The position numbers and the translations under genes are program-made. A stretch of 64,000 nucleotides of DNA from Bdellovibrionota bacterium (GTDB lineage Bacteria > Bdellovibrionota > UBA2428), in the NCBI GenBank assembly GCA_035539375.1, contig DATLIP010000086.1, positions 16,848 through 80,847 on the forward strand, given 5' to 3'. Positions 21,031 through 25,517 of this stretch are shown here, in pieces (the first letter of the stretch is position 1; each line of letters starts with the position of its first letter). The notes under the pieces are model-generated. The model was not told the DNA's origin, did no database searches, and saw only the letters and a program-made list of their open reading frames with translations.

Positions 21031-21516
21031 TCAAAACTTCACGCCTTGTTTGAGCGCAACGCCCTCGCTGGCGCTGGGATTGGCATTTCCGTTTTTTTGC
21101 GCCAAGTAATAAACCGCGCCACCGGCGATGAGACCGACGCCGCTCCATAGCAGCCAGCGCTTCCAGCCCGAAGACGATGGGCTCGGCGTGCCGAGAGCTG
21201 TGGCTGAGGGCGAGGGGATGCGCAGGTAGGGTGAGAGATCCAGAGGTCGCTCGGCAAGCGCATCGGTGTAGACGATTTCCGCTTCGCCCGACCAAGTGGC
21301 CGTCTCGCCGCTCAGGTGCAGAGCGCCCGCGCTCTCTTCGAAATGAATGATGTTGGGGCACGAGGCGACGCCAAAATTCACGTTCAGCAGTGGCGAGACG
21401 CGTTTGATTTCGTGCACAACGTGACGCTGAACAATTTCGATCACGGGCGGTGGAGGCGCCGCCGTGGTGGGCGCGGTGACAGGAAGGATGCTGAGGCAAT
21501 AAATCATAGGATTCAT
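21031..21516 (-). CDS. Hypothetical protein with C-terminal TM segment (last gene of Flp-like operon)
   Basis: ATGA overlap with the upstream gene at 21513-21516. It has a Pro-rich N-terminus and the TM segment WLLWSGVGLIAGGAVYYL. Confidence 0.5.
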   Translation of the reverse strand: MNPMIYCLSILPVTAPTTAAPPPPVIEIVQRHVVHEIKRVSPLLNVNFGVASCPNIIHFEESAGALHLSGETATWSGEAEIVYTDALAERPLDLSPYLRIPSPSATALGTPSPSSSGWKRWLLWSGVGLIAGGAVYYLAQKNGNANPSASEGVALKQGVKF

Positions 21517-22037
21517 GGGGTGACTCCGGAGGGGTTTTCGTCAGGATAGAGGATCTTCACTTTGGCGGGAGCTGCATGGGGGACGCGTTTTAGCTCGAGA
21601 GACGTCCAAAAAATGGGTCGGTAGGGCGGCAAATCTTTTTTGGCCACCAGGCGATCGTCGACGCGTGCGATGTCGTCTTCGGTGAAGACCGCGAGCCGCT
21701 GTGTTTTGCTGAACGAAGCGGCAGGAGCGATGACGGCCTTGAGCATGCGCGCTTCGATCACCGTGCCTTTGGGAAAAGGCACGACCGGCACCATGACCGA
21801 GAGCGTGCGCGCGCTCGGCACTGCGATTTTGGGATCGGGCGGCGCCTGGCGTCCGAGCGCCACAACGAGAATCCCTATGGCGGCGAGGATTCCCAGCGCC
21901 GGCGCATAGGGGCGCAGTCGCGCCTTAACTTTGTCATAGGCGCGCGCCTCTTCCACCTTGGGAGCCGTGGTTTCGGGATTGGCCTTTTCGTCTTCGAAGG
22001 GATGTCTCCAGGGGAATTCTACGGTTTCTTGTGACAT
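21513..22037 (-). CDS. CpaB/RcpC-like protein containing only TM + SAF-like domain
   Basis: TM segment APALGILAAIGILVVAL. VMVPVVPFPKGTVIEARMLKAV...RLVAKKDLPPYRPIF fits the SAF-domain pattern of CpaB. Start taken at ATG 22037 with SD gaggtg; GTG 22043 is an alternative. Confidence 0.45.
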   Translation of the reverse strand: MSQETVEFPWRHPFEDEKANPETTAPKVEEARAYDKVKARLRPYAPALGILAAIGILVVALGRQAPPDPKIAVPSARTLSVMVPVVPFPKGTVIEARMLKAVIAPAASFSKTQRLAVFTEDDIARVDDRLVAKKDLPPYRPIFWTSLELKRVPHAAPAKVKILYPDENPSGVTP

Positions 22038-22165
22038 GTCCACCTCGTTTCTCGAAACTCTTGGTAGCGCTCTTGCAGCTGCGTGTGCACCGAGTCTCCT
22101 TGCGACACGAAAGCCACAATGGCGGTGATGACAACGCCGAGACTCAAGAAAAAATCTAAAACCAC
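22019..22165 (-). CDS. Candidate 48-aa single-pass membrane micro-protein
   Basis: Hand-found. GGAGG, 6 nt, then GTG at 22165, which overlaps the upstream stop. Product: VVLDFFLSLGVVITAIVAFVSQGDSVHTQLQERYQEFRETRWTCHKKP. Its 3' end overlaps the next start. Confidence 0.3.
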   Translation of the reverse strand: MVLDFFLSLGVVITAIVAFVSQGDSVHTQLQERYQEFRETRWTCHKKP

Positions 22166-22692
22166 GGCCGACCTCCGTCTTCGTGGCGAAAGCGCCAGGC
22201 GATCGTCTCTCCCATCATCACCACGATGCCGGCCTTGGCACCGTGAACACGCGTTTCGGCGCCCGGTGTGATGGTGTAGGGCCCGGTGATTTTGCATGGG
22301 TTCACTTTGCGAGTTGTGGGAGCTCCGTCGCGCACGCGAAATCCGCGCATCCGCATTTGCAAGAGAGGAATTTCTGCTTGGTAGCGCAGGCCACTTTGCG
22401 TGAGCGCCAGGGCTTGCGCTGTGGCACGGGCCGCGTTGATGGCGGGCACGGAGGCGACCGGAGGTAGCATGAGAAGGCGCGGGCAGCTTTCGTGCAGCAT
22501 CTTGAGTTGAGCATTGAGCAGACGCACGCGCCTTTCACTTTGCGCAATGGCATCCGCCCGGTCGCCGAGCCAGCGATCGATTTCCAGGCGATCTCCCAAG
22601 CTGCGCACGACTAGTTCTTTGAATTTGACAAAACCACTGGCGCTAAGAGCAAAGCCACTGAGGAGAAGGATGACAAGATAGAGATTCGGCAT
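22156..22692 (-). CDS. Hypothetical N-terminally anchored protein (TadG/pseudopilin-like position)
   Basis: N-terminal TM MPNLYLVILLLSGFALSASGF. It lies between the TadE-like and SAF-like genes. I recognise no motif. Confidence 0.45.
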   Translation of the reverse strand: MPNLYLVILLLSGFALSASGFVKFKELVVRSLGDRLEIDRWLGDRADAIAQSERRVRLLNAQLKMLHESCPRLLMLPPVASVPAINAARATAQALALTQSGLRYQAEIPLLQMRMRGFRVRDGAPTTRKVNPCKITGPYTITPGAETRVHGAKAGIVVMMGETIAWRFRHEDGGRPWF

Positions 22693-22696
22693 AGGG

Positions 22697-23038
22697 CTAC
22701 CTTCGCAGCTCCACCTGGGTGCGGTAGTTCAGGCGTTCCCGAAGCTCATCGTCGACTTGGCTAAAGAGCACGAATTCGCCACGCGCCTGCGCAAAGCCTT
22801 CGCAGTGATAGTTCAGCCGCGTTTGCAGCCAGCGTGGCCAATGCTCGGACGGCACACAGGACCTAGGCGACTGGTAAAGTGAGGAGCGTGCGAGCGAATA
22901 GAGCTCGAGATTCATCAGCACGACCGTAGCGGCATACATAAAGGCGAGCAGCAGCGTGCTCATCGCAAAAACCTGCGCCGCGAGAGTGATGCAGGTTTCC
23001 ACAAGAACTTGCCCTGCGCGGGAATCATTCGTCTTCAT
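22697..23038 (-). CDS. TadE-like pseudopilin
   Basis: ORF trimmed to MKTNDSRAGQVLVETCITLAAQVFAM. The G-Q-x-x-V-E motif followed by a hydrophobic helix is typical of the TadE N-terminus. Confidence 0.55.
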   Translation of the reverse strand: MKTNDSRAGQVLVETCITLAAQVFAMSTLLLAFMYAATVVLMNLELYSLARSSLYQSPRSCVPSEHWPRWLQTRLNYHCEGFAQARGEFVLFSQVDDELRERLNYRTQVELRR

Positions 23039-23279
23039 CGTTAAACTGAGTGCCTTCATCGAAGTCCGACATGTCGAGCGTGCGGTAATGCTTTTCTTCG
23101 GCCTCGACACCCTTCACCTCCGACTTTTTAACGCCGCGGATGGACTCGCTCACCACGGTGAACTTGCTGCGGATGTTGCGACTCACGAGCTGTACGATGG
23201 CAATCGAGCCCACGGAAATTAGGGCGGTTAGGATGAGGTACTCGGTCAGGCTTTGTCCTATTTTATTTTGTAAATTCAT
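23025..23279 (-). CDS. flp: Flp/Fap-family type IVb prepilin with extended charged C-terminal tail
   Basis: ORF 23025-23453 trimmed to ATG 23279: MNLQNKIG/QSLTEYLILTALISVGSIAIVQLV. This matches the Flp G/XXXXEY processing motif followed by a hydrophobic helix. Confidence 0.7.
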   Translation of the reverse strand: MNLQNKIGQSLTEYLILTALISVGSIAIVQLVSRNIRSKFTVVSESIRGVKKSEVKGVEAEEKHYRTLDMSDFDEGTQFNDEDE

Positions 23280-23324
23280 ATGCTTATATCCTTTCAAAAT
23301 GAGTGGGGGTGGGGGCTTTAGATC

Positions 23325-23340
23325 GGCGCCCGAAATGCCG
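23325..23340 (-). promoter_or_regulatory. Weak candidate sigma-54 (-24/-12) promoter upstream of flp
   Basis: Minus-strand CGGCATTTCGGGCGCC has GG and GC at the correct 10-nt spacing relative to TGGCAC-N5-TTGCA. It lies about 48 nt upstream of the flp ATG. The -12 element is poor. Confidence 0.25.
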
Positions 23341-23379
23341 ATAGCAATGTGTATGAAACCTAAGGGTGAATGGACGAGC

Positions 23380-24147
23380 ATGCGACGCAAAGACCTGGGG
23401 CTTTTGCTCGTGGTCGGTTTTTTGTTTGCTTCGCTCACCTTCAACCTCGGCATTTATTGGGGCATCAAGTGGGGGCTCAACCATTCGCCGCAAGCTAGCA
23501 GCGCGCATTCTGCGCCCGCCACTCCCGCGCACGGGCATGGTGGCGTGGTAGAAGCCGCGAACCATCCGGCCTCCGAAGCCGTCACTCCCGAAGTCGACTG
23601 GCACACCAAAAAACAAATTCCCGCCGAGATCACCGAAGCTTTTGTAAAATCCAAACAGAGCGCGCTCATCGAATCGCAGTTGCGTTCCAAAGATCGCACG
23701 CCTGTGGGCATTTCCATTGCGGATGCGGAAACCTATTTCCGCGAGAAAAAACTTCCATGGGGAGAAGTTCCCAAGGAACTTGCCAACCTCGATCGTCAGA
23801 TCGCGTCCGAATCGAAGAAAGCCTCGGAAAATGGCGCCAAAAAAGAGGCCTCCGGTCTCTTTGAACGTTCGCCTGCTTCGGTAAAAAGTTTCAAACCCAT
23901 TCCTGGTCAAAGCACTGTGCAAGTGGCGAGTTACGCCACCGAAGAAGAAGCTGTGGCCCGAGTGAATTTGCTCATCTCTAGTGGAATGAGCGACGCTTAT
24001 TACACCAAGACCAAAGTCAAAAACGAATTCTGGTACCAAGTTGCCGTGGGTTCTTACAAGGACAAGTCCTGGGCTCAAAAAACCGGAGAACGCATGGTTC
24101 ACCGCAGTCTCGCCTCGGAGTACTTTGTGCGCAAAGTTCCCGACTAA
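23380..24147 (+). CDS. SPOR domain membrane protein
   Basis: ORF 23140-24147 trimmed to MRRKDLGLLLVVGFLFASLTF (TM). The C-terminus TVQVASYATEEEAVARVNLLISSGMSDAYYTKTKVKNEFWYQVAVGSYKDKSWAQK has the SPOR pattern. ATG 23353 is an alternative start. Confidence 0.7.
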   Translation: MRRKDLGLLLVVGFLFASLTFNLGIYWGIKWGLNHSPQASSAHSAPATPAHGHGGVVEAANHPASEAVTPEVDWHTKKQIPAEITEAFVKSKQSALIESQLRSKDRTPVGISIADAETYFREKKLPWGEVPKELANLDRQIASESKKASENGAKKEASGLFERSPASVKSFKPIPGQSTVQVASYATEEEAVARVNLLISSGMSDAYYTKTKVKNEFWYQVAVGSYKDKSWAQKTGERMVHRSLASEYFVRKVPD

Positions 24148-24158
24148 GAGCGCCATCC

Positions 24159-25079
24159 CTAATTCCAAACCCATGTTCCCGTTTTGAGGTATTCGCTGAT
24201 CTCACCCGTCAACGTGGCGGGCAGGTCGCTGGCGCGGATCACATTGTCTTTGGCTCGCAGCGAGGCATAGAGAAGTCCATGCTCGAGCTCGCGCAAATTT
24301 CCCGGCCACGAATGTTCTCTGAGCAGAGCGAAGGCCGCGTCGTCGATGTCTTTGGGGGGCAATCCGTGCTGAGCACAGATCTGCGTCAGATAATGCTGCA
24401 CGAGTCCTGGAACGTCGTCGGCGCGAGCGCGTAAGGCGGGTAGGTAAATCGGACAGATGTTGAGGCGGTAGTAGAGATCTTTGCGAAATTGGTTTTTCTC
24501 AATGAGCAGCTCTAAGGGCACGTTGCTCGCTGTGATGATTTGGCACTGCACATTGTCGGTGCTCTGGGCGCCCAGGCGCTCGAATTCCCGGCTCTGCACC
24601 ACGCGCAGCAGTTTGCTTTGGGCTTCGAGGTTGAGGTTTTGGATCTCGTCCAAAAAAAGGCTCCCCTTTTTGGCGATTTCGAACTTGCCTCGCTGCACTT
24701 GGCGGGCCGAGGTGAAGGCCCCGCGCTCGTGCCCAAAGAGGATCGACTCGACGAGATTTTCGGGGAGCGCCGCGCAGTTGATGGGTACAAAAGGCGCATC
24801 GTCATCACCGAGACCGTGCAGCCGCCGGCGTTCGGCGTGGATCCACTTGGCGACAACCTCCTTGCCGGTGCCGGTTTCTCCGATGATCAGCACGTTGATG
24901 TTGGTGCTCGCTGCGAGCTCGACGTCGCGCCAGAGCGTTTCGCTCAGGCGCCCGCGCCCCTCAAACCAGCGGAAGCGGGAGCGGATCTTTTCGGCGAGGC
25001 TCGTGGCAGAAGGGGAGCGTTTACGGGTTGCGGCGCGGGAGCTGAGGGGCAATCCGTGGGGGAAAAAATGCGAACTCAT
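24159..25079 (-). CDS. Sigma-54-dependent activator (bacterial enhancer-binding protein), AAA+ core only
   Basis: Trimmed to ATG 25079 (SD ggagat). Walker A GETGTGKE, GAFTSA (the GAFTGA loop), Walker B LFLDEI, and GNLRELE near the C-terminus. About 45 aa precede the AAA+ domain and about 35 aa follow it. Confidence 0.85.
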   Translation of the reverse strand: MSSHFFPHGLPLSSRAATRKRSPSATSLAEKIRSRFRWFEGRGRLSETLWRDVELAASTNINVLIIGETGTGKEVVAKWIHAERRRLHGLGDDDAPFVPINCAALPENLVESILFGHERGAFTSARQVQRGKFEIAKKGSLFLDEIQNLNLEAQSKLLRVVQSREFERLGAQSTDNVQCQIITASNVPLELLIEKNQFRKDLYYRLNICPIYLPALRARADDVPGLVQHYLTQICAQHGLPPKDIDDAAFALLREHSWPGNLRELEHGLLYASLRAKDNVIRASDLPATLTGEISEYLKTGTWVWN

Positions 25080-25280
25080 CGTTGGATCTCCTTGTTTTGG
25101 CCAGTGACCCTTGCAATCCACAGGCCAAGGCCGAGAGCTCACGAAAAATTCGAAAATTTAAATAGTTATGATATTAAGGGTCGTCGTTTTGGGATACGCT
25201 GAAGGAGATTTTCGGGAAATCTCACGCGATAGTCCGGAGACTTGGAAGATTTTTGCAACGTGTTATTATTGAGCGAGAAG

Positions 25281-25517
25281 ATGAAAAAAAAGAAAGTCTC
25301 AACCACCGTCTACCTCACGGAAGATCAGGTAGAGGCTTTACGACAGCTCCACGAACGCACTCGCGTGCCCATTGCCGAGTACATCCGTATGGGCATTGAT
25401 TTGATCCTCTCCAAGTACGCCGAAAAACTCCCCGGTCAGGTTTCGCTCTTCGACGAGCTTTCCGTCGAGGACCTGGGCTACGGCAACAAAAAAAATACTC
25501 CCCAATCTGACGAATGA
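25281..25517 (+). CDS. Ribbon-helix-helix (CopG/Arc/MetJ-like) protein
   Basis: MKKKKVSTTVYLTEDQVEALRQLHERTRVPIAEYIRMGIDLIL shows a beta-strand followed by two helices, the RHH pattern. The C-terminal tail is acidic. Confidence 0.6.
   Translation: MKKKKVSTTVYLTEDQVEALRQLHERTRVPIAEYIRMGIDLILSKYAEKLPGQVSLFDELSVEDLGYGNKKNTPQSDE

Follow-up and report, generated by a model that had tools for sequence, protein, structure and literature searches.

Introduction

Canonical Tad (type IVc, Flp pilus) loci, such as Aggregatibacter tad, Caulobacter cpa and the Bdellovibrio TAD/hit locus (bd0108-bd0119), encode an Flp pilin with a G/XXXXEY motif, prepilin-like minor pilins and a bitopic SAF-domain protein, together with an ATPase, platform, secretin, TadZ and peptidase. 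Predatory Bdellovibrio and their relatives need pili for prey entry and, to our knowledge, they carry more Flp pilin genes than other bacteria. Here we analyse a six-gene flp module (g1-g6) on a 64,000-nucleotide stretch of Bdellovibrionota DNA, hereafter the window, which comprises bases 16848-80847 of a 124,462-bp contig (C86) in an assembly of 2.89 Mb, 116 contigs and 79% completeness. The module shares the G/XXXXEY Flp, the prepilin-like minor pilins and the bitopic SAF protein with canonical Tad loci, and genes of the TadA/CpaF, T2SSF and secretin families are present elsewhere in the genome. In contrast to those loci, the module itself contains no ATPase, platform, secretin, TadZ or peptidase gene, its CpaB-like protein is without the RcpC domain, its minor pilin is without a TadE match and its pilin carries a long, conserved hydrophilic tail.

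The existence of non-TAD flp genes and of scattered Tad parts in these bacteria is already published. In Bdellovibrio bacteriovorus HD100, flp3 (bd3297) is a flp gene that is not associated with the TAD operon, and flp4, the product of which starts MNKRGQIVVE, is a gene distinct from flp3 (Avidan et al. 2017, PMC5430801). That publication handled flp3 as a lone silent gene, whereas the module described here is an operon of six genes. HD100 also encodes a secretin, bd3306 ('pilQ'), and an ATPase, bd3307 ('cpaF') (Capeness et al., PMC3818213).

Results and discussion

The pilin of the module is an orthologue of Flp3

From sequence comparison, and with moderate confidence, we propose that the module is the filament and accessory half of a second Tad-type pilus, ancestral to the Bdellovibrionota, the motor half of which would have been relocated in this lineage; a cluster of three genes on contig C10 is the best candidate for that half. 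The evidence begins with the pilin. The g1 prepilin, MNLQNKIG/QSLTEYLILTALISVGSIAIVQLV, has a basic leader of seven residues followed by glycine, a G/XXXXEY cleavage motif (QSLTEY), one hydrophobic helix and a charged, hydrophilic tail of 40 residues that carries a conserved D-(L/M)-x-(D/N)-F motif. This is the build of an Flp prepilin, and G8, Q9, E13 and Y14 are invariant across 14 orthologues, as is F73.

A profile made from g1 (positions 1-84, tail included) matches over its full length in 393 of the 401 genomes sampled from the phylum. In the single-contig HD100 genome, the published flp3 reverse-transcription polymerase chain reaction (RT-PCR) primer lies exactly within the g1-profile hit, which begins MKAQTIIK, as does the published cloning primer, and ends at the published reverse primer (PMC5430801). 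Since the primer and the terminal residues all fall within this hit, the window pilin is the orthologue of B. bacteriovorus flp3.

The earlier note on this DNA had called g1 an Flp prepilin. The motif and the flp3 orthology uphold that assignment, whereas the family profile falls short of it: Pfam Flp_Fap (PF04964) scores 17.9 bits (E 0.0027), with a gathering cut-off of 32.2, and no other product of the operon matched a Pfam family. The profile matches nine of 14 g1 orthologues at E<=0.1 (best E 0.001), and the canonical Flp encoded on contig C44 of the same genome is likewise a weak match (23.5 bits). One genome of genus g8 has two equally scoring flp3-type pilin copies 2.5 kb apart (G013:C1:88008-88247 and 90492-90731), which suggests a local duplication.

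The six genes are conserved as a unit

All six tightly packed minus-strand open reading frames of the earlier note, with their ATGA and 14-nt overlaps, are present (Table 1). The identical gene order and tight spacing recur in 17 of the 17 loci examined, which come from nine of the ten genera of the order to which the window belongs and from metagenome contigs, and a g5 homologue was found in 19 of 20 genomes of that order. Given that the same six genes stand in every locus examined, they are genes and not chance reading frames. Their surroundings are conserved too, in the order carB-carA-pyrB-lepA-ribbon-helix-helix gene-activator-(SPOR)-operon-(DUF192)-recO; this housekeeping context implies that the module is chromosomal and vertically inherited. 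Searching the genome by tblastn with g2-g6 found no paralogues of these genes. Several of the metagenome-assembled genomes of the order come from freshwater lakes.

Table 1. Features of the module, of its surroundings and of the related loci.
Feature	Location	Strand	Description
g1 (flp)	23025..23279	-	84 amino acids (aa), MNLQNKIG/QSLTEY; ribosome-binding site GAAAGGA upstream
g2	22697..23038	-	113 aa, MKTNDSRAG/QVLVET; 14-nt overlap with flp
g3	22156..22692	-	178 aa; hydrophobic N-terminus, N-terminally anchored
g4	22019..22165	-	48 aa, single hydrophobic helix; GTG start overlaps g3 stop
g5	21513..22037	-	174 aa from ATG, 176 aa from GTG; transmembrane (TM) segment 41-66
g6	21031..21516	-	161 aa; ATGA overlap with g5 at 21516-21513
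Core-only sigma-54 activator	24159..25079	-	306 aa, Walker A GETGTGKE, GAFTSA loop; upstream neighbour
Sigma-54-type promoter element TGGCCTGTGGATTGCA	25112..25127	-	9/11 consensus, GG and TTGCA intact; 33-48 nt upstream of activator ATG
SPOR-domain gene	23353..24147	+	Pfam SPOR E 2.5e-7; between activator and flp, context only
TadZ-CpaF fusion	C44, locus L015:8665-10872	-	735 aa, TadZ/CpaE-like CbiA/ParA domain plus CpaF ATPase
C10 cluster	C10:16285-19398 (locus L100:5286-8399)		427-aa secretin, 360-aa ATPase, 363-aa T2SSF protein
Prepilin-like protein	Position 1, other families		Homologous to g2
~240-aa protein	Position 2, other families		Leader plus Gly; weakly similar to g3
Small prepilin	Position 3, other families		GQILIE-type; same position as g4
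TM plus beta-domain protein	Position 4, other families		160-240 aa; same position as g5
C-terminally anchored protein	Position 5, other families		290-430 aa, signal peptide plus C-terminal anchor; same position as g6

This conservation bears directly on one explanation, that the module is what is left of a degenerating Tad locus and no longer has a function. Such decay would fit the reduced size of g5, the loss of the leaders of g3 and g4 and the absence of machinery from contig C86, but all six frames are intact in the 17 loci from nine genera, the tight gene overlaps are retained, motifs are conserved and cysteines are invariant, and the structural models of g5 and g3 described below are confident. 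A functionless remnant is thus very improbable, and the conservation data come close to refuting it.

A DUF192 gene lies downstream and is convergent on g6. It was considered as a module-linked gene and set aside: its synteny holds within the order only, and an amidohydrolase gene occupies that place in other families.

Flp3 heads a similar operon across the phylum

In HD100 and seven other families flp3 heads an operon of the same build as the window module (Table 1, positions 1-5). The HD100 pilin shares with g1 the G/Q-x-L-x-EY start, the helix and a tail with the motif Y-K-K-(K/R)-D-(F/L/M)-x-(D/N)-F, and it is followed in both cases by a homologous prepilin-like gene and then, in the same order, by genes for an anchored protein of ~180-240 aa, a small membrane protein, a TM plus beta-domain protein and a C-terminally anchored protein. 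Profile-profile alignment with hhalign relates g2 to the gene after flp3 in the other families with a probability of 96.7% (E 3.9e-10), so that g2 is a homologue of the minor pilin found behind flp3 across the phylum. For g3 the similarity to its counterparts is weak (probability 46%, E 2e-4). No similarity was seen between g5 and the position-4 gene (probability 4.7%), and in the comparison of g6 with the gene at its position only the C-terminal anchor aligned (probability 2.7%). For g5 and g6 we therefore suggest equivalence by position and architecture only, and claim no homology.

The HD100 locus also differs from the window. It has a bd3296-like protein upstream, and a response regulator, bd3306 and bd3307 6-9 kb downstream; the module has a core-only sigma-54 activator upstream and its presumed secretin and ATPase half on another contig. 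In addition, g3 and g4 have no leader, and the sequences of g5 and g6 are not detectably similar to those of their HD100 counterparts.

The downstream genes of HD100 are informative. The operon is followed by two genes on the opposite strand and then, on the flp3 strand, by a response regulator, a 433-aa secretin (bd3306), the start of which is 7.7 kb past that of flp3, and a 369-aa CpaF-like ATPase (bd3307). The regulator, secretin and ATPase genes occur 5-10 kb downstream of flp3 not only in HD100 but also in two more Bdellovibrio genomes and in genome G068, and the same arrangement was found in 13 of 20 additional genera from other families, giving 17 of 25 genomes outside the order. In one genome (G333) it is absent within ~19 kb downstream of flp3. 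The description of the module as an orphan in the earlier note thus holds for this order, whereas the majority of other families have a secretin and a CpaF-like ATPase just 5-10 kb away. That note had offered two alternatives, dependence on machinery encoded elsewhere or a stripped-down system of an undescribed type; the first is supported by candidate machinery on C44 and C10, and the second is made unlikely by the proximity of the flp3 operon to a secretin and an ATPase in most families.

The linked secretins point to a partner in the window genome. For seven flp3-linked secretins, that of HD100 included, the best match in this genome is the C10 secretin (E 1e-11 to 4e-19), and none of the seven matches the CpaC secretin of C44. 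Each of the 20 genomes of the order encodes the C10-type secretin, the orthologue of Bdellovibrio bd3306. We found no account of the operon behind flp3, of its conservation across the phylum or of its linkage to bd3306/bd3307 in the literature searched.

Family f4 offers a variant of this operon. Its position-4 protein matches SAF (E 5.5e-4) and RcpC (E 1.2e-3) weakly, and the gene (locus L095, G030:C64) looks like a fuller CpaB. The f4 operon lies directly downstream of a pilNOPQ (type IVa) cluster, which is 3.6-7.7 kb upstream of flp. The PilQ gene of that cluster, 3.6 kb from the operon, was considered as a Tad part and rejected, since it belongs with pilNOPQ.

Two loci could supply the missing machinery

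Genome-wide Pfam searches for T2SSE, T2SSF, Secretin, RcpC and Peptidase_A24 gave no match on the 124,462 bp of C86. The observation that the window contains no Tad machinery therefore holds for the entire contig, and no complete tad locus lies just past the window edge. Taking a Tad locus as an ATPase, platform, secretin and TadV together with a pilin, the module is not one, and the candidates are on C10 and C44. The whole-genome search for tadA/cpaF, secretin and peptidase genes that had been recommended returned the Tad locus on C44, the pilin-less cluster on C10 and one Peptidase_A24 gene, at C41:6871-7197, beside type IVa pilus genes.

The C44 locus is canonical. It encodes Flp, a TadE-like protein, CpaB (RcpC plus SAF), a secretin, a TadZ-CpaF fusion and TadB, with an RHS/YD-repeat gene after them, and the Bdellovibrio TAD/hit locus is laid out in the same way. 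RcpC has no match in this genome other than that on C44. Across the order RcpC was found in 19 of 20 genomes, as a single copy except for two copies in G009, and none was found in G008; where the module and the RcpC-containing Tad locus share one contig they are 40-64 kb apart.

The C10 cluster differs from canonical Tad loci in having three recognisable genes only. Its ATPase has the TadA family TIGR03819 as best NCBIfam match (E 7.5e-51), and no recognisable pilin, CpaB or minor pilin stands beside it. Stand-alone CpaF-like ATPases with no adjacent platform or secretin are encoded at C14:19493-20326 and C70:1705-2538.

With two loci available, the principal competing explanation is that the module is an alternative filament cassette for the C44 machine, in which Flp3, the minor pilins and the CpaB-like adaptor would be swapped onto TadZ-CpaF, TadB and CpaC under sigma-54 control while C10 serves something else. 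The C44 locus does carry a canonical Tad set, CpaB, TadZ-CpaF and TadB included, its RcpC marker is present in nearly all genomes of the order at the distances given above, the flp3-linked ATPases are closer to the ATPase domain of C44 than to the C10 ATPase, and there is a precedent in HD100, where several flp genes are needed alongside one TAD operon (PMC5430801). However, C44 already encodes a pilin, a minor pilin and a full-length CpaB and would have no need of a second CpaB-like gene; the neighbour of flp3 in 17 of 25 genomes is a bd3306-type secretin, the orthologue of which is on C10 and not on C44; and a spacing of 40-64 kb amounts to no operon-level linkage. On balance we consider a C44 cassette rather unlikely.

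The accessory proteins resemble minor pilins and a shortened CpaB

The N-terminus of g2, MKTNDSRAG/QVLVETCITLAAQVF, is that of a prepilin, with a leader, a glycine and a hydrophobic helix. In the alignment the glycine is invariant and the +5 residue is acidic in 13 of 15 sequences (Glu in 12, Asp in one); the invariant residues are G9, R51, Y55, C61 and C79. The earlier designation of g2 as a TadE-like pseudopilin stands as far as this generic prepilin-like N-terminus goes, but not in its family: g2 has no match to Pfam TadE (PF07811) at E<=1, and the profile matches one of 15 g2 orthologues (E 0.29) and the counterpart from the genus Bdellovibrio (locus L090, E 0.052). PDB sequence searches with the g2 profile, and with a profile of the distant position-4 proteins, returned nothing meaningful.

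D39, C70, C133, G155 and W166 are invariant in g3. Its AlphaFold2 (AF2) model is confident (predicted local distance difference test score, pLDDT, 91.4; predicted template modelling score, pTM, 0.78) and comprises a long helical hairpin followed by a six-stranded sheet. Foldseek comparison of this model with the PDB gave only noise (best E 0.22, probability <=0.18), and word-based homologue searches with g3 returned only g3 itself or two relatives. A leader is missing from g3 in this order; the proteins at its position in other families have one, followed by G.

The 48-aa TM micro-protein that had been listed as a candidate, g4, gains weight from its relatives: an equivalent of 40-75 aa with one hydrophobic helix occupies its position in 15 of the 17 tiled loci; the choice at L048 is dubious, and L054 yielded none. 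That position is held in other families by a small GQILIE-type prepilin, whereas g4 has no leader here.

The g5 protein is predicted to be bitopic, with a conserved cytoplasmic N-terminus (MSxxxVEFPW), a TM helix and a periplasmic domain of the SAF fold. Its invariant features are an N-terminal FxW and an AKKD-x-x-P-x-x-PIFW block. NCBIfam TIGR03177 (CpaB) matches g5 with E 7.8e-6 and 25.3 bits (cut-off 71), aligning residues 48-148 with positions 4-99 of the 262 in the profile, a stretch that covers just the TM and SAF parts; g5 thus resembles the first ~100 residues of CpaB/RcpC. No RcpC domain (PF16976) match was found in g5, which ends ~25 residues past the SAF domain. The AF2 model, built with 75 relatives (pLDDT 83.8), has a TM helix (33-62) and a small beta domain. 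The best PDB matches of this model in Foldseek all have the SAF fold (FlgA, the NeuB C-domain and type III antifreeze protein), with RcpC (9gzr_A) at rank 45, and Pfam SAF (PF08666) is weakly matched by 13 of the 75 relatives. The description of g5 as a CpaB-like protein reduced to TM plus SAF is supported by these results, all of which lie below curated cut-offs.

The g5 family comprises ~83 clusters at 50% identity among 1.84 billion proteins, with representatives of 71-188 aa, and among the 401 phylum genomes sampled it is restricted to this order. The six closest g5 sequences, used as query, found nothing across genomes, and a wider g5 alignment was used instead.

The g6 protein has a short hydrophobic N-terminus, a domain of ~100 residues, a K-x-W-L-P-W motif and a Gly-rich hydrophobic C-terminal segment. 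Its conservation is limited to C7, P22 and C53, which are invariant, and the C-terminal K-x-W-L-P-W with the hydrophobic segment. The earlier note had pictured g6 as a Pro-rich protein with a C-terminal TM segment; the hydrophobic segment is conserved but the Pro-rich stretch is not. Searches of Pfam and NCBIfam with g6 gave no match.

Several of these features could be read in another way, namely that the module makes no external fibre and serves as a short periplasmic pseudopilus or membrane complex (for sensing, the cell envelope or export), or as a cryptic set for rare conditions. The lost leader peptides of g3 and g4, a g5 with no RcpC domain, the conserved hydrophilic pilin tail of 40 residues, which is unlike a typical Flp, and the peptidoglycan-binding SPOR gene interleaved with the module in most genera are all compatible with this, as is the silence and dispensability of flp3 in HD100 under laboratory conditions (PMC5430801). 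However, the retention of the pilin in 393 of 401 genomes, and of its Gly/Glu processing motif, favours a subunit that is processed and polymerised, and the secretin linked to the operon in most families favours a route across the outer membrane. A system with no external fibre appears distinctly unlikely.

A sigma-54 activator accompanies the module in this order

The gene upstream of the module encodes a sigma-54 activator that consists of the core only (Pfam Sigma54_activat E 6.4e-59, AAA_lid_14 E 7.7e-19). Pfam searches of its 306 residues found no receiver or other N-terminal regulatory domain and no helix-turn-helix (HTH) DNA-binding domain. Sigma-54 activators that lack a DNA-binding domain include Helicobacter FlgR, Chlamydia CtcC and Rhodobacter FleT. 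The window activator resembles these in its AAA+ core, its GAFTGA-type loop and the absence of a C-terminal HTH, and is unlike them in that it is also without a receiver or sensory domain and that its own gene is preceded by a conserved sigma-54 promoter. The activator gene is upstream of flp in 17 of 17 loci of the order, and in genus g8 it ends only 2-11 nt before flp on the same strand. The genome encodes rpoN, with an ARRTVAKYR box, on C25. In other families the upstream neighbour of flp3 is the small bd3296-like protein and there is no activator.

An equivalent of the sigma-54-type element listed in Table 1 precedes the activator gene in 16 of 17 loci, scoring 8-11 of 11 (besides the window: L023, L028, L030, L044-L052, L054, L055 and L057). 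Sites scoring at least 9 number 17 in the window (both strands, 128 kb), and ~0.05 are expected per such upstream stretch. A sigma-54 promoter before the activator's own gene implies positive autoregulation, and in genus g8, with flp 2-11 nt past the activator, the activator promoter would drive the whole set.

Neither a sigma-70-like promoter upstream of flp nor a terminator-like site on the minus strand between activator and flp was found in the window. The latter result makes read-through into flp possible. An element of the -24/-12 type upstream of flp (23325-23340) was rejected as a promoter, as it scores 6/11 and is not conserved in the nearest relative; a strong -24/-12 site upstream of flp was found only in genus g2 (TGGCACTATTTTAGCA).

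A model for a proposed second pilus

In the mechanism that we propose for the two-part Flp3 pilus, the g1 and g2 prepilins would insert in the inner membrane and be cleaved after the conserved Gly by the only A24 peptidase detected, that on C41. Together g2, g3 and g4 could form a priming or tip complex for polymerisation of Flp3, and g5, perhaps with g6, may act as a periplasmic ring or adaptor between platform and secretin, as do CpaB/RcpC. The ATPase, platform and secretin of C10 would then extrude the fibre. Expression would depend on the adjacent activator with no DNA-binding domain, the promoter of which would provide positive autoregulation and, in genus g8, also co-transcription of the activator with flp through g6.

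Several observations weigh against this proposal. The module and the C10 cluster are never near each other in this order. Because the flp3-linked ATPases are closer to those of C44, C14 and C70 than to that of C10, it is only the secretin, of all the parts, that supports C10. The roles of g5 and g6 are argued from architecture and position, because profile comparison relates neither of them to its positional counterpart in other families. The family matches of g1 and g5 all fall below curated cut-offs, and g2 is without a TadE match. No conserved promoter lies directly upstream of flp in the window. With the assembly 79% complete, a TadV-type peptidase or further parts may be missing from it. 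In HD100, finally, flp3 was silent in all conditions tested and dispensable for predation (PMC5430801).

A bolder extension is offered more tentatively. In nearly all Bdellovibrionota the flp3 operon and the bd3306/bd3307-type secretin and CpaF might constitute a distinct second Tad-like nanomachine, with its own CpaB-like ring protein and a g3 of unmatched fold; in this order it would have been split and rewired to a self-activating regulator with no DNA-binding domain, which might switch an alternative surface fibre on and off in a bistable manner. If so, the parts of this machine have until now passed for a solitary silent pilin gene and a scatter of 'type IVb' genes.

The flp3 gene is the most widely conserved of these flp genes in the phylum, and it heads a six-gene operon of putative minor pilins and a CpaB-like protein. 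Its usual proximity to a small secretin and a CpaF-like ATPase provides a candidate machine for a silent gene, and the window lineage suggests that the two halves are separable and can be placed under a different regulator. The hypothesis would help to sort out which of the scattered Tad parts of these genomes work together.

Other features of the upstream region

The small conserved bd3296-like protein (MEKVKLSKDGSSIDF...KKFRQSPE.EGFYRF.FENDL.KEA) precedes flp3 in most families (L089, L094, L096, L097/L101). It has no Pfam match, and in this order the sigma-54 activator takes its place. A weak relative may be encoded on contig C114 near 60.2 kb.

The SPOR-domain gene starts with MKPKGEWT, a sequence conserved with locus L023, and in genus g8 the gene is missing from this place. 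SPOR and flp are separated by a divergent region of 73 bp, in which (~23310-23345) CTATCGGC is conserved (TTATCGGC in the nearest relative). On the SPOR strand the reverse complements, GCCGATAG and GCCGATAA, fit the -10 consensus of sigma-28 (FliA) and lie only ~8 nt ahead of the ATG of SPOR.

A 12-mer, CAAATTATTGGC, which lies within the inverted repeat GCCAA-ATTA-TTGGC, is found 26-48 nt upstream of the flp ATG at L044, L045, L048, L053, L055 and L057. Four genera retain it ahead of the flp ribosome-binding site; neither the window nor the rest of this genome contains it. It may be an operator. Finally, a ribbon-helix-helix gene (25281-25517) is divergent from the activator and is kept in the nearest relatives, where it matches RHH_3; its product might supply the DNA binding that the activator is without.

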